Shown one piece after another: positions 62 through 11,686 of a DNA stretch of 12,723 nucleotides. The stretch's first letter is position 1; the number at the start of each line of letters is the position of its first letter. The DNA is from a virus. Its lineage: Duplodnaviria > Heunggongvirae > Uroviricota > Caudoviricetes. The stretch lies in IMG/VR virus record IMGVR_UViG_2654587685_000022. The stretch is one strand, 5' to 3'. The notes below the pieces were generated by a model, which was given only the letters and a program-made list of their open reading frames with translations, did no database searches and was not told where the DNA came from. Made by a program: the position numbers and the translations under genes.

Positions 62-310
62 ATGCGTATTGAAATCTGCATAGCCAAAGAAAAAATGACT
101 AAAATGCCAACCGGTGCTGTGGATGCGTTAAAGGAAGAATTAACCCGACGCATCAGTAAACGTTATGACGATGTAGAGGTGATCGTAAAAGCCACCAGCA
201 ACGATGGCCTTTCTGTTACACGCACCGCAGATAAGGATTCTGCAAAAACTTTTGTTCAGGAGACTCTGAAAGATACCTGGGAATCTGCTGACGAGTGGTT
301 TGTTCACTAA
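62..310 (+). CDS. dinI: DinI-like DNA damage-inducible protein (prophage-borne homolog)
   Basis: 82-aa [12 protein letters not shown]...[11 protein letters not shown]. Length, N-terminal MRIE motif and C-terminal ETWESADxWFV motif match my recollection of E. coli DinI (about 81 aa). SD GAGGG sits 6 nt upstream and two LexA boxes lie directly upstream. It is on the opposite strand to the tail module. Confidence 0.85.
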
Positions 311-544: not shown

Positions 545-1150
545 CTACGCCTCCGGCAGTTCAGGCCAGATGACATCCGGCGCGGTGCTGGTATCTGTTG
601 CCTGCACCGCCTTAATGTAGCCAATCCAGGCAATCAGGCTGGCTTTGTCATCGCCACTGATAATGCCTAACTGCAGTTCCGTTTGCCACAGGCTGATTTT
701 TGAATTTGCGGCGTTCAGAAGATTTGTTTTCTGTTGCTCGGCTTCGGCCACGTTCGCCGAGTGCTGTTTATCGCTATCTGTAGCCCATTTCTCACCATCC
801 CATTTGTCATATGGCGTAGATGGTGCTGTGGTGGTGGTGCCTTCCGGGTATTCTCCCAACCGTGAAACTGTCACATGCTTTCCAGTTTCCGTGCTGTAAA
901 CGGTTTCGCCGCGATGGTCTGCAACGTATTCCCAACCGGTCAAATCAGCCGTCCGGCAAACAGCAAAGCCGTCCTTTTTGCTGATTGGCGCATCCACGCA
1001 CGAATTGCCTGGAACACCAACGCCAACGGGAAGATATTCAACAGCTAAACCGATATATTCACGCGTCACGCCATCATAATTATAAACGGTGATATATCCG
1101 TCTTCCGTGACGAAACCGTTTTCATCTAATGAAATTTCTTTTGCGGTCAT
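545..1150 (-). CDS. Tail fiber assembly protein (Tfa chaperone family)
   Basis: 201-aa ORF immediately downstream of the tail fiber gene with a 1-nt TAATG stop/start overlap. This position and size are typical of Tfa/gpU-like chaperones. Family assignment is by position and general composition, not by search. Confidence 0.7.
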   Translation of the reverse strand: MTAKEISLDENGFVTEDGYITVYNYDGVTREYIGLAVEYLPVGVGVPGNSCVDAPISKKDGFAVCRTADLTGWEYVADHRGETVYSTETGKHVTVSRLGEYPEGTTTTAPSTPYDKWDGEKWATDSDKQHSANVAEAEQQKTNLLNAANSKISLWQTELQLGIISGDDKASLIAWIGYIKAVQATDTSTAPDVIWPELPEA

Positions 1151-1905
1151 TATACTGCCCTTACAATGTAGTTGAATGCGAGGTTGCGCGGGCGAGTTTC
1201 AGCACCTGTTGAACCATTCGCCTTTACGTAAACCCAACCAGAGCCATTAAAAGTGGTTGCATTAATCATATATTTAATCGGAATCATGTCAGAGTCAGGG
1301 GTATCGCCCAGCCTGTCCCTGTAAGCGGTCTCTGAACTGTATGCCATCGCTAGATCATGAGTATGCTGCTGTACTGATTGGCTCTGACCAGTTAAAACAA
1401 CGCGCCCACTATCAACCCCGCGCCCATCATCCCAGCCACGGATAAATTCACCGCGCAAATCAGGCAATTTTAACGCTGGATAAACTTTTGCCAGCTCCGG
1501 GTATTCTTCAGCAGAAAAAGGCGCACCGTTGCATTTAATCCAGCCTGTTGGCGGTGTGGCTGAAGGCCACGGAACAGGTACACCAACGGGTAACGCTGAG
1601 CCTTCTCCCAAACCAAGGTTTTCGAGAGCCGTTTTCACCGTGCCATCCGATTTGATATCACCAAACGGATTCTTGCGGCTTAACAGCAGCGCACGAAGCG
1701 CGGTAAGCAGCTGGTCGTGCCGCCCCTTCTCCAGGCTGGCACCGGATGCCTCCACAACGCTGCAAAGCTCCTCCTGCAACATGTCAAAGTAGTCATCATC
1801 CAGATCGGTGGCAGGTGTGCCGGTCTGGGGGTTACCACGGGTAAAACCGTTCTTACCCGCGCCGAACTTATCCTTCTGCGCGGTTTTCGTGTCTATACGA
1901 TGCAT
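1150..1905 (-). CDS. Short tail fiber protein (constant N-terminal part plus tail-collar-like C-terminal domain)
   Basis: 251-aa ORF with GGAG SD 7 nt upstream of the ATG. The C-terminal half (PVGVPVPWP...[23 protein letters not shown]...[17 protein letters not shown]) resembles the phage tail collar domain found in e14 StfP-type short fibers. The N-terminal roughly 97 aa end exactly at an internal hix-like site. Confidence 0.7.
1603..1628. other. Candidate Hin/Gin/Cin/Pin-family DNA invertase crossover site inside the tail fiber gene
   Basis: TTCTCCCAAACC-AA-GGTTTTCGAGAG is a 26-bp imperfect palindrome about an AA core. Each half matches 9/12 to hixL (TTCTTGAAAACC AA GGTTTTTGATAA) as I recall it. 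It encodes [10 protein letters not shown] at residues about 92-101 of the fiber, which is where Sc/Sv junction sites sit in Mu and e14 fibers. Confidence 0.5.
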
Positions 1906-1908
1906 GGA

Positions 1909-2493
1909 TTACTCCGGATATTTAAAAATTACGTAGGTATGCGAAGGGCAGAGTTTGTTAAGCACGCACTCGACAACGGTGTCGCCCCAGATACGCAGTG
2001 CGGAATCACAGGGATCGCCACATGTCATCCAGGTGGTGTTGGTGGCGGCTGGCATGTTGACCTGCCAGTAATACCGCCATTCCGGCGCATTCACTGCGTC
2101 AGTACAGGCCGATGAGCAGGTGAACGTGCTTTTATCGTATCGCGTGATAGTGGCGTCTGGTCTGCCCAGGGCAGCAAGCTGTGCAAGATAAAAATCCTCA
2201 TTGATGCCGCCCGCCAGATTAACCTTCGCATCCAGCCGTTGCTGACGCTGGCGAAGGGTCTGTGTCCCTGCGGGAATACATTCATCCGGCAGACCGCACA
2301 GACGCTCCCAGCGGTTTATCAGTTCAGTGGTGGTGCGCGGATCCAGCTCCCGCATCAGGGCATCCGCACGCTGATGAACGCGGGTTAATGACGGTGCCGC
2401 ACCGGCAATCGCCGGATCGCTGACTGACCACGCCGGACCGGGCGGCAACAGTGCCGACAACAGACGGATATAATCATCGTTTGTCACGTCCAT
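1909..2493 (-). CDS. Baseplate wedge/tail protein, Mu gp48-like (YmfQ-like, 194 aa)
   Basis: 194-aa ORF between the baseplate J-like gene and the tail fiber, overlapping the J-like gene by 10 nt. Position and size correspond to Mu gp48 and e14 YmfQ. Confidence 0.6.
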
Positions 2494-3542
2494 GAAATCG
2501 TCCCCAGAACCGCCAGCTCATTTTTTGCAATGGAGATATTGTCCGCCGGGGCAAGCAACTGATGGCTGTATTCCCCGTTCGCACCGGAAATCGCTTCACT
2601 GATACGTGACACCTTCAGTTCTCCCTGCGGATAACCATCACGCAGCAGGAACGAACGCAACTCGGCGGTGATGGCAGCCCGTATTTCCGGTGTGTCCGGC
2701 GTCACGCGGATATGAAAATCCACTTTATGCGCCACCGGCCTGAATACATACAAATCAGAGCCTGCCACCGGGGCCAGTGGCTCGATATGTTGTCTTGCCG
2801 CCGTTTCCGTTGACTCTTCCGGAATGGGATTAATCAGGTCACTGCTGGCAATCATCACACCGACAGTCCCCGTTCCCATCCAGTGTCGGTATGTCCATGC
2901 GCGGGTAATGCCGGGCACTTCTTTAGCCCAGACGACATAGTCCCCGTCAGCCCCGCCCTGAGGCGTCCAGTAATACCGCTCAATGACGCGGGCGCGCCAC
3001 GTTTCCAGCTCTTCAGTATCAAATCCGCCTGTCAGGGTGTCAGCCACACCGGAAGACGGCAGACCATTCACCGGCGTGACCAGGATTAATGCCGTACCGT
3101 CGTCAGCGTTACCGACCGCGCCTGTAGTTGAGCAAGTGATCGGCACACGCAGGACACCACCAGTGCTGATTGCATCGGCAGTTGCCGTGTACTGAACCAG
3201 GTCATCGCGCTGAATAACACTCCCGGCGGTCACCTTCAGGCCATCGCTGACACCTTCCCAGCGCATATACCCGCTGGCAGCCGTGGCCCCCTTGCGCGGA
3301 CACCGTTTCATCGCAGCATGTCGCGCCAGCCAGGACTCATCGCACAGATCAGGCAGCATGTTCATTGCCAGATAATCGATGTAACCGTAAACCGTATGCA
3401 GCGCCGCCGCATACACCTTTGCCCGCACGTCTTCATCCATGCGCCGGAGCGTGTCGCTGACGTCCAGCCTGGCGAATAAATCGTTACGGAGCATACTGAT
3501 ATTTTCTGCCAGCGTCGGGCGCTGAAATTCACTGTCCGCCAT
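2484..3542 (-). CDS. Baseplate J-like protein (Mu gp47 / P2 gpJ family)
   Basis: 352-aa ORF in the conserved position between the gp46-like and gp48-like genes with overlapping start/stop. Size and position are as expected for baseplate J. Confidence 0.7.
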
Positions 3543-3957
3543 GCGTTATCGCACTCCACAGATCATCAAAAGAAATCATTACCGGTCCGTCACGACGCCA
3601 GAGAGTGATACTGTTACCCAGTTCATTAATCCCGGTGCGGCGGATATCCAGATCAATACGGGACACCACGCCATCATCAATCATCCATTGCAGGCATTCG
3701 CGGATATACCCCCTTACCGTCTGCACCAGCTGATTGGTCAGTTTGCTGCGCTGAAGCAGCCACAGTCGGGAGCCGTAACGGTCATTCTGTACCGCAGGCC
3801 AGGTATCCCCCCACCATCCCATCGGGACGTCGGCGTTGTCATCAGGCTCCGCCCGCCGCCAGGTAAACAGGGAAATCACCACGGCGCGGGTCAGCGGATC
3901 CAGCGGTGCGCTGGCGCAGGTGCGTTTACCGTTCACCGTCAGCCACAGTTCCATCAT
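3529..3957 (-). CDS. Baseplate protein, Mu gp46-like (GP46 / gp25-like family)
   Basis: 142-aa ORF following the spike gene with a 4-nt overlap. Size and position match Mu gp46. Confidence 0.6.
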   Translation of the reverse strand: MMELWLTVNGKRTCASAPLDPLTRAVVISLFTWRRAEPDDNADVPMGWWGDTWPAVQNDRYGSRLWLLQRSKLTNQLVQTVRGYIRECLQWMIDDGVVSRIDLDIRRTGINELGNSITLWRRDGPVMISFDDLWSAITHGGQ

Positions 3958-4502
3958 GCCTCCATCGCTTTATCAGGTTTGTCGGTGTTACTGCCCTGAC
4001 CGTTCTCTCTGTGACGATGCCCGTTATAGGCAAGCCGCATCGCTGACATGGTGGTACCGCTGGAGTCGCACAGGTCTTTCACCTGTCCTGTCACTTCCAG
4101 GTCCATTTCAAAACGTGCTTTAGGTGAATTGCGAAACGTGATCGTTTTACCTGCACCGTCCACCACGATCCCCTCCCGGGTCAGCGTCACGGACTGCCCC
4201 TGATCGTCATAGACAGCCACCTCACCCGTCTGCAGCCCTTTCAGGCGGTAACGCCGATCCGACACCGTAACAACCACCGCATGAGAACGGTCGCCATCCG
4301 GAAACAACACCACCGCTTCCGCACCGCTGTTTGCCCTTGCGGTAAAACCGTAAGGTTCAAGATGTTCAACCCCGGCTTTGGGTTCACCGGCAATCAGGGA
4401 CACATCCACGGTCTGACATTTCGTTGCGGCACTGATGCTTTTCACCACGGCCCGCCCAATCAGGCCGAGAAGTTGTCGCTGTATGGTTTCAATCGCCCTC
4501 AT
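3954..4502 (-). CDS. Baseplate assembly protein V / central spike (Mu gp45-like)
   Basis: 182-aa ORF with a 1-nt stop/start overlap with the upstream hub gene. Size and position are as expected for the gpV-like spike. Confidence 0.65.
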   Translation of the reverse strand: MRAIETIQRQLLGLIGRAVVKSISAATKCQTVDVSLIAGEPKAGVEHLEPYGFTARANSGAEAVVLFPDGDRSHAVVVTVSDRRYRLKGLQTGEVAVYDDQGQSVTLTREGIVVDGAGKTITFRNSPKARFEMDLEVTGQVKDLCDSSGTTMSAMRLAYNGHRHRENGQGSNTDKPDKAMEA

Positions 4503-5581
4503 CAGAACGGGTCCTCCTGTACTCTGGCTTTTTTCTTTTTCCGCGCGCCGGGATCTTCGGGTTCAGGCAGATAAGCATCAGGCGGGCCGACACGGATTTC
4601 CGTCAGGGTGCCGTTCTGGTCCTGAGTAAACGTGACTTCCGAAACAAGCAGTTCGGTATTGTCGAAACCACAGACCGGATCAAAGACAATCACCCGCTGG
4701 TTGGGCTGCCACAGCGTACCGTTACCCTGTCGCCAGCCCTGCACCACATAGGTGGTTTCATCCGTCCGCGCCGCCCGTTGTCGGGCTTCAAAGTCAGCAC
4801 GCGCAATACAGCCTGCCCCCGTGGCCTGCCCTGTCTGCCTGATATACATCGGACGGTAACGGGCAATAAATGCGTCCTCTGTGCGGGCCCGCAGCGCGGT
4901 GGTGGTGGCCTCACCGAAATCATCGTCGTTTCCGGCACGCTGCCCCGCCACCTGGTAAACTGAAAACCGCTCCCGGATACTCTTCTCCGTATCACAGGAA
5001 AGGATGTTTTCCCCAAGTACCAGCGCGGTATGTGCCCGCGTTGAGCCAATACCGCCAATCACCAGCCTGCCGTGCGGGTCGTCGTAAGCCAGTGCCTGCT
5101 GCTGACCGAGTATTTTGTTGATTACCTCAATCACCGTTTCACCGTGATCAGGCTGGACGTCAGGAATAACACCCGACGGCGCACCGTTGTTCACCACCTC
5201 AATGCCGAAGGGCGCAGCAAGCGCCTGCGCAATCTGTACCAGCGATCGTCCGTTAAACTGTGTCGGTTCGGCTGCACAGTCAATCAGATCAGCGGTTAGA
5301 CTGCGTCCGGCAATACCAGTGCTGACCGAACGGGCATCGTAACGAACGGGCGTCGCCTCCACCCAGCCGGTGATCACCAGCTCATCACCAATCAGCACTT
5401 CCACTTTTGAACCGTTTTTAATGCGCGGCTGAAGCGTGGTGATACCCTCATCTCCCGGCCACTGGCGGGTGATCTCCACACTGAAATCCCGCGCCAGTCG
5501 TTCAACACCGGCACCGATGCGCACCGATGTCCAGCCATTCCACTCCCGGCCATTTACCCGTAGCGTGACGTTATCGTTCAT
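4502..5581 (-). CDS. Baseplate hub / tail protein (Mu gp44 P, P2 gpD family)
   Basis: 359-aa ORF directly downstream of the DNA circulation gene with a 4-nt overlap, ending in a Lys-rich tail (GARKKKKARVQEDPF). Order matches Mu N-P-Q. Confidence 0.65.
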   Translation of the reverse strand: MNDNVTLRVNGREWNGWTSVRIGAGVERLARDFSVEITRQWPGDEGITTLQPRIKNGSKVEVLIGDELVITGWVEATPVRYDARSVSTGIAGRSLTADLIDCAAEPTQFNGRSLVQIAQALAAPFGIEVVNNGAPSGVIPDVQPDHGETVIEVINKILGQQQALAYDDPHGRLVIGGIGSTRAHTALVLGENILSCDTEKSIRERFSVYQVAGQRAGNDDDFGEATTTALRARTEDAFIARYRPMYIRQTGQATGAGCIARADFEARQRAARTDETTYVVQGWRQGNGTLWQPNQRVIVFDPVCGFDNTELLVSEVTFTQDQNGTLTEIRVGPPDAYLPEPEDPGARKKKKARVQEDPF

Positions 5582-6906
5582 TGCACTGGCACCTTCAGAG
5601 GGATCACCGGCACAAAGCCGGGATGCGTAATGGCATTACGCCGGATAATGTCCGCGTCACGCGCCGCGTTATCAAACCAGGTCGCCGCCAGCACCAGCGC
5701 GGGTAAAACCTCATCCGGTGTGCGCTGAATGATCCGTGCAGACTGTTCAAGGCGCGTGTTGATATCCGCATTCAGATCTGCTTTCACCCGGCGCAGCGCC
5801 AGAAACAGCGCATCACTGGTTGTACGGGACAACTCCTTATCAATTGCCGTATTCAGTGTGTCGCGAATGTCAGTCAGTTCTTCCCACGTCGGCAGGTCAA
5901 CTGTGTTTTTCACCGCCGGTGCATTGTTCAGTGCCGGATGCGTGACGGAAGGCCAGCCAGTGCTCTGCGCAGGTGTTGTTGCCTGCCCCACTGCGGAATT
6001 CTGCATCACCGCGGAAGTTGTTGGCGCAGGCAATCGGGTGACGGCATACGCCGCTTCGCTGATTGCGGTCGTACGAAGGGTGCTGGCAACCACGTTACGC
6101 TGCTGCGTCGCCGTGGCGGTGGTTTTACTGTCCGTTTTCCAGACGCCGCGCGGTTGCAGATCGCTGCCGAGGCTGACACCGGAAAGCGTTTTGATCATGG
6201 TGACCAGGTCGCTGGCGTTACCATAAAGGCGTTTCCCGGTACGCCACATTTTCTGCACCTGCTCAACGAAATTTTTGCCTGACGATGGCGGCGGCAGAAG
6301 TACCGAGATATCCCCCTGCAACAGCCTGGCGTCATCCGATACGGCAGAATCCACCACTTTCATCGCATCAGAAACATACCCCAGCATTATGCTGGCATTA
6401 CCGATAACGTCGTTCTGCACAAAATCCGCCACACCATCGATACTGAAACCGCTGAAGCTGTCACTGATGCAGTCATCCAGTGCAGAACAGGATGACATCA
6501 GCGTCTGCGCCGTCGCCGCACCTGATGTGGGGTAAGAGAGTTCTCCTGCTTCGACAAACTTCAGGTCAAAGCGGACAATACGCCCTTCACTTTTCGATGT
6601 GCTGACCCGAACTTCCCCGTCAACACAGACTTTCAGCTCACCATATGTCGGGTGGACAAGCGTGCCGGGACCGGGTTTATTCAGCGCTTCAATCAGGCGA
6701 TCGCGCTGGTCAAAGCAGTCATCTCCCACCACATAAGCTGTGATGGACGGGCGGAAAGTGACTTTTCCCAGATCTTCGGTATAGGGCTTGTCGCGGTTCG
6801 GATATTCGTGTGTTTCCACACGGCGACCGGTTCCCGCACTTTCTTCTTCAACCTTAAACGGTACGCCGCGAAATGACGCATCCTGAAGCCTGTCTTTCCA
6901 CGTCAT
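5578..6906 (-). CDS. DNA circulation protein (Mu gp43 N-like)
   Basis: 442-aa ORF whose N-terminus MTWKDRLQDASFRGVPFKVEEESAGTGRRVETHEYPNRDKPYTEDLGK matches my memory of the conserved N-terminal domain of Mu N-type DNA circulation proteins. SD GGAG sits 5 nt upstream of the ATG. Confidence 0.75.
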   Translation of the reverse strand: MTWKDRLQDASFRGVPFKVEEESAGTGRRVETHEYPNRDKPYTEDLGKVTFRPSITAYVVGDDCFDQRDRLIEALNKPGPGTLVHPTYGELKVCVDGEVRVSTSKSEGRIVRFDLKFVEAGELSYPTSGAATAQTLMSSCSALDDCISDSFSGFSIDGVADFVQNDVIGNASIMLGYVSDAMKVVDSAVSDDARLLQGDISVLLPPPSSGKNFVEQVQKMWRTGKRLYGNASDLVTMIKTLSGVSLGSDLQPRGVWKTDSKTTATATQQRNVVASTLRTTAISEAAYAVTRLPAPTTSAVMQNSAVGQATTPAQSTGWPSVTHPALNNAPAVKNTVDLPTWEELTDIRDTLNTAIDKELSRTTSDALFLALRRVKADLNADINTRLEQSARIIQRTPDEVLPALVLAATWFDNAARDADIIRRNAITHPGFVPVIPLKVPVQ

Positions 6907-6921
6907 ATAAACTCCGGATAC

Positions 6922-6977
6922 AAAAAACCCGCCAAATCTGCTTTGTCAGTTATTTACATCGCAGAAGATGTGGCGGG
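6922..6977 (-). terminator. Candidate intrinsic terminator downstream of the AT-rich cargo ORF
   Basis: On the minus strand a two-tier hairpin (outer stem CCCGCCA/TGGCGGG at 6928-6934 and 6971-6977, inner stem TCTGC/GCAGA) is followed by a run of six U (plus-strand A6 at 6922-6927). It ends about 16 nt before the DNA circulation ATG. The loop is long, so strength is uncertain. Confidence 0.45.
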
Positions 6978-6996
6978 AACCTAATATTTTTAATTA

Positions 6997-7491
6997 CTAT
7001 CTGAGTTGAACATCAATGGAATAAATATTACCACTCTTTATAAATTTAGAATCTGTCCTTTCATCAAAAGATTCAAATGACTGTACCTTTAAAAACTTTT
7101 TCATTTTATTTTCAAAAATACTTTCATTAACACCAGTTAAATACTTGAACGCTCTACCAGCAAGGACCTCATTACTTAAATCCATTGTGTTTTTATTGTC
7201 TTTGAAAAACCAAACAATAACCTTTTGTGGGCATGATGGATTATAAACAGATATATAAAACTGCGGCTCATATTTTTCATCAGCGTCATCACTAAGCATT
7301 TCTTCAGAAGATAATTCTCTTCTGAATTCATATTGCCGCTTAGTTATTCCTTCATCCTTTATTATCTCTTGCTTAACTGGTGCAATACCTATAGAAGAGA
7401 TTAATTCTGACTCATTAAAGCTGAACTTACACTCTTCCGCAGCCAAGTTAAAAGATAAAAGTGCAGATATAAAAAAAACAAAGATACGCAT
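6997..7491 (-). CDS. Hypothetical secreted/periplasmic protein of unknown function (AT-rich moron cargo)
   Basis: ORF track gives 6997..7509 (170 aa). The third in-frame ATG (7491-7489) has a GAAGGG SD 6 nt upstream and begins MRIFVFFISALLSFNLAA-EECKF, a typical Sec signal peptide. The mature part is about 146 aa, Lys/Glu/Ser-rich with two Cys, and I recognise no family. Sampled stretches are roughly 23-37% G+C versus about 55% in flanking genes. Confidence 0.6.
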   Translation of the reverse strand: MRIFVFFISALLSFNLAAEECKFSFNESELISSIGIAPVKQEIIKDEGITKRQYEFRRELSSEEMLSDDADEKYEPQFYISVYNPSCPQKVIVWFFKDNKNTMDLSNEVLAGRAFKYLTGVNESIFENKMKKFLKVQSFESFDERTDSKFIKSGNIYSIDVQLR

Positions 7492-7522
7492 AATCATCCC
7501 TTCAATCATTTGTAAGGAATGA

Positions 7523-7528
7523 TTATAT
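7523..7528 (-). promoter_or_regulatory. Candidate sigma70 -10 element (TATAAT) for the cargo ORF
   Basis: A perfect TATAAT on the minus strand lies 13 nt upstream of the first in-frame ATG (7509) and 31 nt upstream of the SD-preceded ATG (7491), in the 81-bp gap after the tape measure stop. No good -35 hexamer was found (GGTTTT/GTTTTC at roughly 16-17 bp spacing), so the call is weak. Confidence 0.3.
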
Positions 7529-7590
7529 TAACTACTTAAAGCTGAAAACCCAAATTATGCCAGACAAAAACACATTAATCATTTTGTACA

Positions 7591-9423
7591 CTACCTGAAC
7601 CGCGTATAGCCAACATCATGGCTGACATCAAAACCGCTGGATCGCGTTTCCATAACCCGCATACCCGGAGGCGAATTCACAAAAGAGACCTTGATCTCAC
7701 CATCAACTTTTGGCACAGAAGCTTTGTTAATCATGAAGGGATTCGAGCCTGTGGCATCGGAGGCGTTGTTTGACTGAGCCGGATCCACCGCCGGATAAGG
7801 TGTGTATCCCCGCGCCGGTATTCCCGTCCCATAAGCATCATAAGCACCCGCGCCCCACTGCGCAGAGTTAATGGCATCGACCGTGTCACCGGAACTGTCG
7901 GTAAACCACTCAATAATTGGCTTCAGCTTGTCCCACATATCCTGAAACCACTTAACAACCGGTCCCCAGTTATTGATCACCATCCCCAGCGGCGACCAGG
8001 CAAAAACCTTCTTCAGAAGTTCCCAACCTGCCTCAAAATAAGGACCAATGGTTTCCCAGAGCTTCTTGAAATAAGGTCCGACAACATCCCAGTTAGTGAT
8101 AATTAATCCCGCAGCCAGAGCAATCGCCGTCGCAATCATGCCAATCGGCGTCATCGACATAATCCTGCTGACAATACTGATGGCACCGCCAACGCCCATC
8201 AATCCCAGTTTCAGAATCGCAAGACCGGCAGCAAGCCCGACGACGCCGCGAATAACCCGGGGATTTTCATCCGCAAACTTCGTGAATTTTTCCCCTAACT
8301 CCCCCAGCCATTGCGTGATATTTTTGGCGTCACCAGAAAATGCGCCGCCAATAGCCGCAAGGCCGTTAGTTGCGGTCCCCGTCATTGCCTCCCACAGGTT
8401 GGACAGCGTACCAAGCTGGGCCTGAACACGTTTATTCAGGCTGGCCTGTTTATTCATCTTCTGCTGGATCTGATCGTAGCCATCCTTTCCTTTATCGATT
8501 AGTGCATTGACCACCTGAAGGGTTTCGGCATCATCACCAAATATTGCCTTAAGTACACCTGTTCGCTTAACGTCGGTCAGTTTTCGCAGCTTTGCCAGTT
8601 GCCTGAACATGTTATCAAGACCGCCAAAACTTCCTTTGCCGTCAGTAAAATCGAGCTGTACCCCGAGTTTCTGGCGGGCCATGATTTTATTGACGTCCCT
8701 GATTTTCTTAACGCTTAATCCGGACTGGATAACTTTTCGCAGGGCGTTACCTGCCGACTCCCCGTTCATCCCCATCTGATCCATCATGACGCTGATGGGG
8801 GCAAGGCTCTGTGCAGCCTGAAGACCGTCCTTGTTCACCATCTTCAGAACAGAGCTGGTTTTAGTGAAGAAGGACAACATGTTGGTATCGTCAACACCCA
8901 GATAAAACGCCTTCTGGATAGTGTCGAACAGCCCCATCATGTCTTCTGACGCCGTTCCGGTAGCATCCTGCATCTTTGCAGCAAACTCAGCAGCCGCTTC
9001 CGGTGTTTTTTTCAGTTGTACCGCAAGATAAGCTGTCGCTTTACCCACACCGCCAAGAATATTTTCTGCCGGGATCCCCTGACGCACCAGCATCTGCATC
9101 ATGTTCTGGAAATCAGCCGTTGTACCGGGTAGCTGGTTACCCAGGCCAATAGCCAGTTTATTGATGTCCTGAAAGCTCTTTCCGACCTCGCCGTTCGCAT
9201 CCATCATGGCGACTTTCAGCCCGGTGGCGGCGTTTTCCTGATCGGCATAAGATTTCAGGGAAAGCGTCAGACCCGCTGCCAGTCCGCCACCAAGCGCCAG
9301 CCCACCCTGTGACGCTTCTTCCGCCTGGCGTTTAAATCCCCGGATTTTCTTTTGCATTTTCGACAGCGCGGGAGAAAGCCTGTCGACACCGGTGATCAAC
9401 GCCTTAAGCTCAAATTCCGCCAT
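7591..9423 (-). CDS. Tail tape measure protein
   Basis: 610-aa ORF directly after the chaperone frameshift region. It has a Gly/Ala-rich hydrophobic central segment (GVVGLAAGLAILKLGLMGVGGAISIV...IGMIATAIALAAGLIITNW) and coiled-coil-like N-terminal regions, typical of tape measure proteins. Confidence 0.8.
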   Translation of the reverse strand: MAEFELKALITGVDRLSPALSKMQKKIRGFKRQAEEASQGGLALGGGLAAGLTLSLKSYADQENAATGLKVAMMDANGEVGKSFQDINKLAIGLGNQLPGTTADFQNMMQMLVRQGIPAENILGGVGKATAYLAVQLKKTPEAAAEFAAKMQDATGTASEDMMGLFDTIQKAFYLGVDDTNMLSFFTKTSSVLKMVNKDGLQAAQSLAPISVMMDQMGMNGESAGNALRKVIQSGLSVKKIRDVNKIMARQKLGVQLDFTDGKGSFGGLDNMFRQLAKLRKLTDVKRTGVLKAIFGDDAETLQVVNALIDKGKDGYDQIQQKMNKQASLNKRVQAQLGTLSNLWEAMTGTATNGLAAIGGAFSGDAKNITQWLGELGEKFTKFADENPRVIRGVVGLAAGLAILKLGLMGVGGAISIVSRIMSMTPIGMIATAIALAAGLIITNWDVVGPYFKKLWETIGPYFEAGWELLKKVFAWSPLGMVINNWGPVVKWFQDMWDKLKPIIEWFTDSSGDTVDAINSAQWGAGAYDAYGTGIPARGYTPYPAVDPAQSNNASDATGSNPFMINKASVPKVDGEIKVSFVNSPPGMRVMETRSSGFDVSHDVGYTRFR

Positions 9424-9583
9424 GTGTGCGTTTCTCCTGCTCTATCCTGTTTGCCTGACTGACCAGCAAGGGAATTTCACTGATCGGCATATTCAGCAAT
9501 TCGAAAGGATTAATGCGCCAGTAGCTGGCGCAGTCAAAGAAGCGATCAGTGAGGTATTCAGCCGTCAGGCCTGGAGGAAAAAA
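9410..9583 (-). CDS. -1 frameshift extension of the tail assembly chaperone (fusion product about 141 aa spanning 9410..9834)
   Basis: The minus-strand heptamer T_TTT_TTC (plus 9577-9583, gaaaaaa) lies 3 codons before the zero-frame stop. The -1 frame continues ...FFPPGLTAEYLTDRFF...EQEKRTHGGI to a stop at 9410-9412, overlapping the tape measure start (9423) by 14 nt. This is analogous to lambda G/GT and P2 E/E+E'. Confidence 0.55.
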   Translation of the reverse strand, partial: FFPPGLTAEYLTDRFFDCASYWRINPFELLNMPISEIPLLVSQANRIEQEKRTHGGI

Positions 9584-9834
9584 CCAGCCACAAGCCACGC
9601 CGCTGCATTCAGGTCTGCCGGAGACATCTGGTCGACAGAGCTTTGCGGCACTTTCGCCAGCCGCACAATGTATTTCGACACCACATGCGCCAGAAGTCTG
9701 ACTGACTCATCCTGATTCATCTGGTAGGGATACCCCAGCTCGCGGACATCCTTCCCGGTGGGTTCATCAAACTCCAGTACGGAGAGTGTCTCACCATGAG
9801 CGATAATCGGTTTCTTTAACTCAAGCTCTTTCAT
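9565..9834 (-). CDS. Tail assembly chaperone (Mu gp41-like), zero-frame product
   Basis: 89-aa ORF between the tube and tape measure genes. It ends ...AAAWLVAGFFLQA over a U_UUU_UUC slippery heptamer. Confidence 0.65.
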   Translation of the reverse strand: MKELELKKPIIAHGETLSVLEFDEPTGKDVRELGYPYQMNQDESVRLLAHVVSKYIVRLAKVPQSSVDQMSPADLNAAAWLVAGFFLQA

Positions 9835-10190
9835 TACTGGTAATCCCCTTCTTCACCGTGGAACTCAAGATCAACCGTGCCTTCTTCGGCATTATGGTTC
9901 GCTTCGCCGTGCAGCCAGGCGGACGACAATACATAGACCTGACCGTTCGCCAGCTCGGCAGTGATGGTCATCTCATCAGACGAGGTGATTTTGCTCACCG
10001 GAAAATTCTTCGGCACCTTGAAGGTCCCTTTGACATAAGGCGCACGGTGAGTTTCCTTGCGGTCCACTGAACCGTCCAGGCCGATGATGTCATCATTGAC
10101 CGTCCTGTTCATGGGCACCTCAATGCCGCCGGTCAGCGATAGCTGCTGACCGTCAATTTTGAAATAACAGGTTCCCCCGATACGGGCCAT
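9834..10190 (-). CDS. Tail tube protein (Mu gp40-like)
   Basis: 118-aa ORF immediately downstream of the sheath gene with a 1-nt stop/start overlap. Size and position are typical of Mu-type tube proteins. Confidence 0.7.
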   Translation of the reverse strand: MARIGGTCYFKIDGQQLSLTGGIEVPMNRTVNDDIIGLDGSVDRKETHRAPYVKGTFKVPKNFPVSKITSSDEMTITAELANGQVYVLSSAWLHGEANHNAEEGTVDLEFHGEEGDYQ

Positions 10191-11686
10191 TATGCAGACT
10201 CCTCTGAATACTGAAGACGGAACTGGTTAACCACGGCAAAGACACGCAACTGGTTAACATAGTCAGGCGGGAACAGCGTGTTCAGGCGGTTCGGATCGCT
10301 GGCATCACGCTCCACAACCAGGTACTGCTTAAACAGTTCGTAGTTTTCCACGATCCCCGCACGCTCAAGCTGACGGTAGGTTGCCAGCAGTTCCCCTTTG
10401 ATCACCGCCGGTGTGACAATCGCCTGACCGGGACCAAAGCGGGTACCGTCGCTGGCAAGCTTGTGACGCCCGTACTTACTGGTAATGACGGATTTCAGTT
10501 TGCGCAGCACATACGCGCTGGTATGCAGCGTCTCGCTGTCGAGGTAGCTGTTATCCGCAACACCGTAAGCGTTTTTCCTGTACGTGGTGACATCACGCTG
10601 AATGCGCAGCACCCCGCTTTCGACATACGCCGTTGCCACGCCATGAGACAGCAGGGTCTGTTGTTCGGTCATCGTGAACCGTTTCCCCTTCGGCGCAGGC
10701 AGCATACCCACCAGCTCACCGGTCTGCGTGGGACGTGCCGGATCGTTGCGAATAAACACCGCTGCGCGGGCGGTACGGCTTGCCGCCAGCTCGTCGGCAG
10801 GCGTCTGGGTCTCTTTTTCGTATCCCGCCAGGGTAATGTGCTGCTGGTTAAACTGGTCACCTGCGTTCACCAGTTCTGACAGCGTGCCGATCTTTGCCGT
10901 ATACACATGACCATACAGCTGACGCGCATAGCTCCAGCGACCGCTGGTATCGTTCATCTCGGTCACCAGCGTGTTAACGGAGGCCGTGTCGTTGAACGGC
11001 AGGCCGATATAATCAAACGGCTCATCCGCCATTGCAGCCACCGCGCCGGTGAGAACCGGAGCACCCGTTCCGGCGGTACCCGTCGCCACGGCAATCTGTA
11101 CGCCCGCTGGCAGCACTTCGCCCCCACCAAAGCCGTAGTAATTGAGGCTGACAGGAATTTCATTCCCGCAAAGCCCCTTATGGCGAGCGGTCAATGTAAC
11201 CACACCAGCCGAAGATGAGGCCGTAAACGGCAGGGCCGGAACGGCATTGATGGCATCTTTGATACTGCTGGCAATCGTCGCGACGTTATCGCCGTTGGTC
11301 ACCGGTGCCTGCACGCGGGTACGTCCCACATAAACATTCACCGTGCCGGTTTCGGTTGCTGCCCCGGTCACCGTCAGCGTAACTGTTGCCGCCGCGCCTG
11401 TGGATTCAGGAACGGCAATTACATACAGTTCACCAAACGGGTCGGTCTGGCGATAAGCCTCGACCATACGCGCCAGCTGACTTCCCGCACCACAAATCTG
11501 GCGTGCATAGTCTGCCGACGGCATCAGCACCAGACTGTTGGCAACAATCTCTGCACCGTTATTGGCATGACCAATCAGCAGCGATGCTCCGCTGTCCTGT
11601 GCAGTATTCGCCACCTGGTTATCCATTTCCGCATAAAACAGCGGAACCAGCGTATTCGACGGAATGGTGTTAAAGCTTATCGTCAT
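10190..11686 (-). CDS. Contractile tail sheath protein (Mu gp39 L-like)
   Basis: 498-aa ORF (MTISFNTIPSNTLVPLFYAEMDNQ...) with an AAGGTG SD 8 nt upstream. Size and position upstream of tube, chaperone and tape measure are typical of sheath proteins. Confidence 0.8.
   Translation of the reverse strand: MTISFNTIPSNTLVPLFYAEMDNQVANTAQDSGASLLIGHANNGAEIVANSLVLMPSADYARQICGAGSQLARMVEAYRQTDPFGELYVIAVPESTGAAATVTLTVTGAATETGTVNVYVGRTRVQAPVTNGDNVATIASSIKDAINAVPALPFTASSSAGVVTLTARHKGLCGNEIPVSLNYYGFGGGEVLPAGVQIAVATGTAGTGAPVLTGAVAAMADEPFDYIGLPFNDTASVNTLVTEMNDTSGRWSYARQLYGHVYTAKIGTLSELVNAGDQFNQQHITLAGYEKETQTPADELAASRTARAAVFIRNDPARPTQTGELVGMLPAPKGKRFTMTEQQTLLSHGVATAYVESGVLRIQRDVTTYRKNAYGVADNSYLDSETLHTSAYVLRKLKSVITSKYGRHKLASDGTRFGPGQAIVTPAVIKGELLATYRQLERAGIVENYELFKQYLVVERDASDPNRLNTLFPPDYVNQLRVFAVVNQFRLQYSEESA

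Follow-up and report, generated by a model that had tools for sequence, protein, structure and literature searches.

An AT-rich accessory gene at the tape-measure/DNA-circulation junction of an SfV-like Escherichia coli phage encodes a predicted exported protein of an uncharacterized family

According to our analysis, the viral DNA record IMGVR_UViG_2654587685_000022 (12,723 nucleotides, all of which were analyzed and are referred to below as the window) represents the minus-strand tail module of an SfV/SfII-like temperate phage of Escherichia coli, and an insert of 684 bp separates the tape-measure gene from the DNA-circulation gene in this module. Its anatomy is very probably that of an exported accessory protein placed in a hotspot slot, one that related phages leave empty or fill with unrelated genes. 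From the sequence, and by analogy with known systems, the product may be a periplasmic blocker of phage entry (superinfection exclusion), which we propose tentatively as a reading that is plausible but short of probable. The positions that matter for the argument are as follows.

7591-9423, minus strand: tape-measure gene, 610 amino acids (aa), PhageMin_Tail (PF10145), so named in strain 19-5 and phage SKA5; borders the hotspot on its upstream side
6907-7590, minus strand: insert, 684 bp
7492-7590, minus strand: AT-rich spacer of 99 nt between the tape-measure stop and the open reading frame (ORF), holding TATAAT, TGGCATAAT and GAAGGGA
7438-7491, minus strand: predicted signal peptide, residues 1-18 (MRIFVFFISALLSFNLAA), with a predicted signal peptidase I cut before EEC
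6997-7437, minus strand: mature protein of 146 aa plus stop codon, predicted alpha/beta domain
6922-6977, minus strand: intrinsic terminator, hairpin and U6 (-22.3 kcal/mol, z -3.2)
5578-6906, minus strand: DNA-circulation gene, DNA_circ_N (PF07157), Mu gp43-like; downstream border of the hotspot

The Insert and Its Predicted Product

An earlier note on this DNA had described an AT-rich insertion lying exactly between the two tail genes, and this description was accurate: the insert spans the distance from the tape-measure stop to the ATG of the DNA-circulation gene, and its G+C content is 0.314 (0.312 for the ORF), in comparison to 0.519 and 0.559 for the tape-measure and DNA-circulation genes, respectively, and 0.534 for the window overall. 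The single substantial ORF in the insert (6997-7491, minus strand, 164 aa, beginning MRIFVFF) starts with the ATG at 7491-7489 and ends with the stop codon at 6999-6997. A Shine-Dalgarno sequence, GAAGGGA (7503-7497), is located 5 nt upstream of the ATG; the ORF announced in the earlier note is therefore real, with the start corrected from 7490 to 7491. Over 6800-7700 the window matches E. coli 19-5 and several more complete genomes at 100% identity, and the RefSeq record of strain 19-5 contains an identical coding sequence (CDS) of 164 aa (WP_023277704.1). According to our own estimate, an open frame of 164 codons would arise by chance at 31% G+C with a probability of about 1e-6. The ratio of nonsynonymous to synonymous substitution rates (dN/dS), calculated only for pairs with unsaturated synonymous sites, is 0.15-0.20, and the ORF is under purifying selection. 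The insertion of a mobile element was rejected because flanking direct repeats or a target-site duplication were looked for around the insert and none were found; a non-coding RNA was rejected because the insert has no credible match in Rfam.

The N-terminus of the protein, assessed heuristically, follows the n/h/c pattern of a signal peptide: MR, then IFVFFISALLSF, then NLAA, with the cut placed before EE. The maximum 12-residue Kyte-Doolittle hydropathy of this segment is 2.68. The predicted cleavage site, NLAA/EEC, is aligned in all close homologues, with Ala or Ser at position -1 and a small or aliphatic residue at -3; the sequence of the h-region varies freely among the homologues, whereas alignment is maintained for the cleavage motif and for the cysteine that follows two residues later. 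No lipobox is present in this protein, as the cysteine is preceded by Glu. Both cysteines, C21 and C87, occur without exception in the 11 closest homologues, and C87 is found in all 15 aligned sequences; such a conserved pair is a feature expected of a protein in an oxidizing compartment. Judged by these sequence features, the protein would be exported to the periplasm by a Sec-type signal peptide, and Cys21 and Cys87 would form a disulfide there. The signal peptide, the mature part of 146 aa and the two cysteines, all pointed out in the earlier note, thus hold up in the comparison with homologues.

The AlphaFold2 model, built from an alignment of 11 sequences, has a mean predicted local distance difference test (pLDDT) score of 86.9 and a predicted template modeling (pTM) score of 0.79; it shows an alpha/beta protein with seven strands and four longer helices, and only the segment of the signal peptide falls below a pLDDT of 60. 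The model found no fold match among solved structures, the profile search of PDB sequences returned only noise, and the searches of Pfam, NCBIfam and PADLOC with the protein gave no match. The full length of the protein (residues 1-164 of 164) was matched by PHROG 8976 with an E-value of 4.4e-107, but this family has no assigned function and membership in it is therefore uninformative on mechanism. The earlier note had recognized no family for the product, and PHROG 8976 remains the only match; the profile and structure searches that it had recommended yielded neither a characterized relative nor a similar fold.

The family is small. An exhaustive phmmer search of 1.84 billion representatives retrieved only 12 proteins, and a profile search of 5.8 billion clusters retrieved 23 clusters; there were no annotated relatives among these matches, and all named ones are called “hypothetical protein.” Those members that are named and located belong to Escherichia, Salmonella, Atlantibacter, Kluyvera, Yersinia ruckeri and Pantoea. 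Members of the family have lengths of 156-184 aa, mostly 164 aa, and diverge down to 26% identity with the Cys, Pro and aromatic columns conserved. No similarity in sequence or fold was detected to known exclusion proteins (Sie of PHROG 8545/15667, T4 Sp/Imm, HK97 gp15, Ltp, Llp/Cor and P22 SieA). In open-access text, WP_023277704 is not named and the tape-measure/DNA-circulation junction is not described in any paper that we found.

A Hotspot Between Two Conserved Tail Genes

The comparison of related tail modules, which the earlier note had suggested, revealed that the junction is commonly empty and that cargo occupies about half of the Enterobacterales species loci. The cassette was present in 84 of the 1079 complete E. 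coli genomes with recognizably related flanks, that is, it is absent from about 92% of the related modules. In a sample of 60 rows spread across the ranking, the flanks lay about 60 bp apart in 27 rows, and two rows had other cargo. The junction is also empty in SfV, SfI and SfII. The second cargo found in E. coli is a lipoprotein of 225 aa (lipobox LLGG/C, PHROG 1353; 54 genomes), and the third is a membrane-anchored OB-fold protein (PF12869) encoded on the opposite strand (58-79 genomes; E. coli 82.0312), which matches PHROG 8545, “superinfection exclusion Sie-like,” with an E-value of 1.5e-49. The three E. coli cassettes are thus similarly frequent (84, 54 and 58-79 genomes).

At the species level, genomes were scanned with an alignment of the DNA-circulation protein. 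Among the Enterobacterales loci, 18 had a junction of 36-91 bp, with only 3 bp in one further locus (L070), 18 had an AT-rich junction of 519-994 bp with a cargo gene, and four were of intermediate size; in betaproteobacterial relatives the junction measures 2-3 bp. The statement of the earlier note that this junction is normally tight is not supported by these data, because even in close relatives without cargo it comprises 36-91 bp with a terminator hairpin. As far as these sequence comparisons go, the junction is an accessory-gene hotspot. The same ORF with matched G+C was not encountered in most related modules, and the accessory-gene reading therefore survives.

Clustering of the cargo proteins resulted in 15 families including the present one; at least 14 others are unrelated to it, and almost all have no known function. 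According to a simple heuristic based on hydropathy and the lipobox, an N-terminal signal peptide, a lipobox or a transmembrane segment occurs in 10-11 of the 15 cargo families vs. none of the 13 tail proteins of the window. The other cargoes include two lipoproteins, three more signal-peptide proteins and several proteins with one or two transmembrane segments, some of them encoded on the opposite strand; those not directed to the envelope include bPH_1 (bacterial PH-domain), Clp-protease-like and RepL-like proteins. PADLOC revealed no defense system among the junction cargoes, the only matches being weak ones to CRISPR-associated regulators for the RepL-like cargo. A signal-peptide cargo of 150 aa from Kosakonia, Mixta and Erwinia was considered as a diverged form of the family and rejected, since hhalign aligned only the signal peptides (probability 13%). 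The alternative cargoes are located in our set of loci as follows.

L004: 1201-1878, plus strand
L005: 1143-1589, minus strand
L063-L116: upstream of 4001 (in L067, near 1671)

The tail module has a second variable site of approximately 1.9 kb between the DNA-circulation and gpP genes, which is absent from the window. The insert at this site in L010 (7980-9778) contains ORFs of 506 and 93 aa without a Pfam match; the one in L051 (5270-7204) is known from the size of the gap only.

An Old Resident of the Junction

The order of tape measure, ORF and DNA-circulation gene was found in all phage loci recovered: 46 from IMG/VR (gene order checked by tblastn in 16), 11 from assemblies (three of them too short for full flanks), three from species genomes, and the isolated phages SKA5 and AH07. 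The identities of the three proteins decrease together, as listed below.

ORF 95-100%; tape measure 98-100%; DNA circulation 98-100%
ORF 57-62%; tape measure 69-79%; DNA circulation 67-76%
ORF 35-38%; tape measure about 59%; DNA circulation 55-57%

Across 46 loci, which are not independent of each other, the identity of the ORF tracks that of the tape measure (Spearman 0.93) and that of the DNA-circulation protein (0.84). Furthermore, the gene is AT-rich in every lineage (G+C 0.32-0.41), which indicates that low G+C is a lasting feature of the gene and does not point to a recent arrival. These sequence relationships suggest that the family is an old resident of the tape-measure/DNA-circulation junction. 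A view of the insert as a recent foreign insertion had to be abandoned: the phage copies of the family are confined to the junction, have co-diverged with the tail genes to 26-38% identity and have low G+C throughout.

The sole non-phage copy (P0024, 34% identity; L119 and L120, 4001-4471) is still AT-rich. It follows the terminator of a gene for a pertactin-type autotransporter of 1079 aa, beside genes of the major facilitator superfamily (MFS) and LysR types, and its N-terminus has been replaced, so that the signal peptide and Cys21 are absent. This copy may represent a stranded remnant or else a derivative located in the cytoplasm.

Terminator, Promoter and Transcription

The stem of the terminator consists of 7 bp formed by CCCGCCA (6977-6971) and TGGCGGG (6934-6928), and it is followed by U6 (6927-6922); the loop has 36 nt in the window, whereas relatives have a tetraloop. 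A G+C-rich hairpin of 7 bp with a T-run was found 3' of the gene in every lineage. Its position directly upstream of the DNA-circulation gene is conserved across all lineages (for example, L001 1634-1660, L046 5512-5535 and L056 5535-5558), and the stem versions CCCGC/GCGGG and CCCAC/GTGGG represent compensatory changes between lineages. The empty junction of SfII has a homologous hairpin, GTCCCACtccgGTGGGAttttt, at an equal distance from the start of the DNA-circulation gene, and a terminator was annotated there by the SfII authors. Directly after the terminator comes the Shine-Dalgarno sequence GGAG of the DNA-circulation gene. The presence of the hairpin in empty junctions such as that of SfII implies that the terminator is an element of the phage backbone and not of the cassette. 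The hairpin with U6 that the earlier note had seen is therefore present at 6977-6922, but it does not belong to the cassette. The cargo slot, as delimited by sequence comparison, appears to lie between the tape-measure stop and this backbone terminator. A 19-nt imperfect inverted repeat (79% complementary; 6829-6847 and 6963-6981), which pairs the 5' side of the terminator with codons 20-26 of the DNA-circulation gene, has probably arisen by chance.

The perfect TATAAT emphasized in the earlier note is indeed found at 7527-7522, but its role as a promoter is doubtful: the best -35 match at a spacing of 16-19 nt has 0-2 of 6 positions, so that there is no -35 element, and scans did not rise above shuffled sequences. 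A consensus scan of 6700-7800 revealed no sigma-70 sites (shuffles average 2.7), and promoter scans of this and three other lineages gave none above shuffles, with 0-2 same-strand sites per scan and 1.4-2.7 in shuffles counted on both strands. A second candidate is the extended -10-like TGGCATAAT at 7562-7554. Conservation of the spacer that holds both elements is limited to the E. coli lineage (L040), and elsewhere the spacer is either missing or of unrelated sequence; between lineages, the upstream spacers differ in length (99, 84 and 133 nt) and are not related in sequence. In L055, L056-L059, L121 and Pantoea phage AH07, the gene starts 10-17 nt past the tape-measure stop, a distance that accommodates hardly more than a ribosome-binding site, so that a promoter would need to be inside the tape-measure CDS. 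Judged by this gene arrangement, the gene appears to be part of the late tail operon in these phages.

No terminator was found between the tape-measure gene and the ORF, which implies that late transcripts include the ORF. In strain 19-5 the identical region belongs to a prophage adjoining dusA, with HK97-type head genes and a Mu-type contractile tail, and this prophage has a gene for a Q-like antiterminator upstream of the lysis and structural genes; on this basis, we infer that late transcription reads through the hairpin.

A moron, in the sense of Juhala and Hendrix, is an extra, autonomously transcribed unit lodged between conserved genes of a phage. The insert resembles a moron in that an extra gene stands between genes that are adjacent in related phages and in its deviant base composition (0.32-0.41 in homologues vs. 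0.46-0.57 in the flanks). The classic moron layout proposed in the earlier note is consequently retained in part: the gene is an extra, AT-rich and non-structural one, but its promoter is not above chance, the terminator belongs to the backbone and the acquisition is not recent. Low G+C and a terminator alone are thus not proof of a recently acquired, self-transcribed moron.

Possible Function

The insert is very probably one allele of a variable accessory slot in SfV-like temperate phages of Enterobacterales with Mu-type tails, and the gene is probably transcribed at least with the late tail operon. A Q-type antiterminator would let late transcription pass the terminator, and any unmodified transcript that begins in the spacer would end at the hairpin. 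A weak promoter consisting of a -10 element only may, in the E. coli lineage, lie in the 99-nt spacer and add expression in the lysogen; the terminator would then shield the baseplate genes. As an entry blocker, the exported protein would bind those parts of related incoming tails that penetrate the membrane (tape measure or hub) or, alternatively, an envelope component needed by these tails. Such binding would explain the linkage of the gene to its own tail module and its co-evolution with it. We lean toward entry blocking because the cargo of the slot is mostly envelope-targeted, one cargo has a Sie-like match, the linkage to the tail is strict and accompanied by co-divergence, and precedents exist in HK97 gp15, T4 Spackle, TP-J34 Ltp and T5 Llp. 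A role of the cargo in the envelope or in phage exclusion, as supposed in the earlier note, is judged likely from sequence and analogy.

Several points weigh against entry blocking. The promoter evidence is at chance level, and in several lineages the gene is a late gene only, unless a promoter is located within the tape-measure CDS; late-only expression fits poorly with the protection of a lysogen and suits a role in the lytic cycle better. The co-divergence with the tail genes may result from physical linkage alone, and the enrichment of envelope cargo was scored by a heuristic of hydrophobicity and lipobox. The protein has no homology to any known exclusion protein, and in the tape-measure, DNA-circulation, gpP and gp45 proteins no domain of a lysozyme or peptidoglycan hydrolase was detected with Pfam. 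A lysozyme inhibitor of the Spackle type was accordingly rejected as a candidate, as Pfam found no tail lysozyme domain that could be its specific target.

An extended version of the proposal is possible but doubtful. In this version the junction would be a dedicated, previously undescribed slot for envelope-acting anti-phage cassettes of at least 15 unrelated families, and the present family would act in exclusion as a soluble protein of the periplasm with a new fold; it would recognize tape-measure or hub proteins of its own tail type on their way through the periplasm and would have co-evolved with them from a time preceding the divergence of the enterobacterial genera.

Lambda Bor and Lom are prophage products that alter the envelope, and by this model the protein could be a factor of lysogenic conversion or host fitness that is expressed from the prophage and changes a property of the envelope from the periplasm (stress, serum or toxin resistance, adhesion or nutrient uptake). 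Such a role is credible, if unlikely. It would agree with an exported, AT-rich cargo of the tail operon followed by a terminator, with the -10-like elements in the 99-nt spacer of the E. coli lineage, with the occurrence of the cassette in strains from many hosts and with the one homologue located in a non-phage chromosomal context beside an autotransporter gene. This homologue, however, has lost its signal peptide, the distant homologues leave no room for a promoter, and a generally useful host factor should spread to other sites and other phages, whereas the phage copies are restricted to one junction of one tail type and co-diverge with it. The absence of a terminator before the ORF and the coupling over 10-17 nt in L055-L059, L121 and AH07, which implies late co-expression, would instead suit a periplasmic helper of the phage's own burst, made together with the tails, one that spares progeny from being lost to the dying cell and its debris by masking a receptor or entry component or, alternatively, tunes lysis. 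Two isolated phages, SKA5 and AH07, have the gene, and T5 Llp provides a precedent (PMC9586334). We regard this role as rather unlikely, since the gene is dispensable, being missing from most close relatives including the viable SfV, SfI and SfII, and some alternative cargo at the same site is encoded on the opposite strand and hence does not consist of late-operon genes. Mechanistically, such a helper overlaps with an entry blocker and differs from it mainly in timing.

The constant position, the co-divergence and, in some lineages, the tight coupling to the tape-measure gene could also be expected of a conserved tail component with a role in structure or assembly that happens to be AT-rich. 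This is very improbable, because the gene is absent from about 92% of the related E. coli modules and from SfV, SfI and SfII, unrelated genes replace it, some of them on the other strand, and the betaproteobacterial relatives manage with a junction of 2-3 bp; moreover, a signal peptide would take the protein out of the cytoplasm, where tails are assembled. It is scarcely conceivable that the ORF is a decaying or non-functional one, a chance frame or a remnant in a recombination hotspot, and this explanation is effectively refuted already. The tiny size of the family, its lack of a known function and the only non-phage copy, which looks N-terminally truncated, would be in line with it, but the dN/dS values, the low probability of such a frame at this G+C content by our estimate, the confident AlphaFold2 model and the maintenance of length (156-184 aa) and of Cys, Pro and aromatic columns down to 26% identity all contradict it.

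Entry blocking remains our working proposal. Entry-blocking proteins are poorly catalogued; they are small, diverse and missed by defense-system finders (PADLOC found none here), and a fixed slot in a common enterobacterial prophage tail module, occupied for the most part by exported, lipoprotein or membrane proteins, is a practical place to look for such functions. Near-identical prophages with an empty slot or another cassette may serve as matched natural controls. If the family binds the incoming tape-measure or hub protein, it would be a tool for studying how temperate phages with contractile tails cross the periplasm. We consider the gene a good experimental lead for entry-blocking functions, one that would come as no surprise to specialists.

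Other Features of the Tail Module

The remaining genes annotated in the window are listed below in the order of minus-strand transcription, with the single plus-strand gene at the end.

10190-11686, minus strand: sheath
9834-10190, minus strand: tube
9565-9834, minus strand: tail assembly chaperone
4502-5581, minus strand: gpP-like gene
3954-4502, minus strand: gp45-like gene
3529-3957, minus strand: gp46-like gene
2484-3542, minus strand: baseplate J
1150-1905, minus strand: fiber gene with a Collar domain
545-1150, minus strand: tail-fiber assembly gene (Caudo_TAP)
62-310, plus strand: DinI-like gene

The region of the insert is shared by the isolated phage SKA5 with 99.3% identity. The fiber genes of the window differ in size from those annotated in strain 19-5, despite the identity over 6800-7700, and this suggests that the fiber module has been exchanged. 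On the minus strand of 9410-9598, the sequence GGTTTTTTTCC, with a T-run at 9582-9576, stands directly before the stop of the chaperone gene at 9565, and an overlapping ORF of 62 aa occupies the apparent gap of 141 nt ahead of the tape-measure gene. The GGTTTTTTTCC site is probably a programmed frameshift of the tail assembly chaperone (G/GT-type).

Comparison With Known Systems

One close parallel is gp15 of HK97, the product of a tail-operon moron next to the gene for the tape measure; exclusion by gp15 depends on which tail region the incoming phage has (Cumby et al., 2012; PMC3594210), and a mechanism of this kind is what we propose for the present protein. Both genes are additions to the tail operon that adjoin the tape-measure gene, have a deviant composition and encode an envelope product (by prediction in the present case). 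The product of gene 15 is a small protein of the inner membrane and a relative of YebO, and its promoter and its expression from the prophage have been demonstrated (PMC3594210), whereas the present one is a predicted soluble, exported alpha/beta domain of 146 aa that has no sequence similarity to gp15 and no demonstrated promoter. In addition, gene 15 is upstream of the tape-measure gene in a siphovirus, while the present gene is downstream of it in a Mu-type myovirus tail.

T4 Spackle (gp61.3) is a soluble periplasmic protein that binds the tail spike or tip and blocks superinfection; it is encoded by an early gene of a virulent phage, is helical and inhibits the gp5 lysozyme (PMC7677548; PMC7650644). 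The two have in common that they are small soluble proteins with a signal peptide, as predicted for the present one, but no lysozyme domain was found in the present tail module and there is no fold match. Among lipoproteins, Ltp of TP-J34 targets the tape-measure protein, and Llp of T5 and Cor of phi80 and N15 block the FhuA receptor (PMC3952083; PMC9586334). These are phage lipoproteins that are targeted to the envelope and act in exclusion, and two of the alternative cargoes at the present junction are lipoproteins too; the present protein differs from them in having no lipobox and no homology, and Ltp acts in Gram-positive bacteria. Finally, in the Z/fun locus of P2 and other prophage hotspots, unrelated accessory and defense genes alternate between conserved tail genes (Rousset et al., 2022, PMC9122126; iLund4u preprint, 10.1101/2024.10.15.618418). 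The present junction is likewise a fixed slot in which unrelated genes alternate among otherwise similar prophages, but it belongs to another phage group and lies between other genes, and its cargo consists of single small genes that are mostly envelope-targeted and include no system known to PADLOC.

Overall, neither accessory genes in tail operons nor hotspots between tail genes are new, as exemplified by gene 15 of HK97, lom of lambda and Z/fun of P2. Our analysis adds to them an uncharacterized protein family without a structural analogue in the PDB, the recognition of the tape-measure/DNA-circulation junction as a widely used slot, mostly for envelope proteins, and evidence for an ancient, tail-linked cassette as opposed to a recent acquisition.

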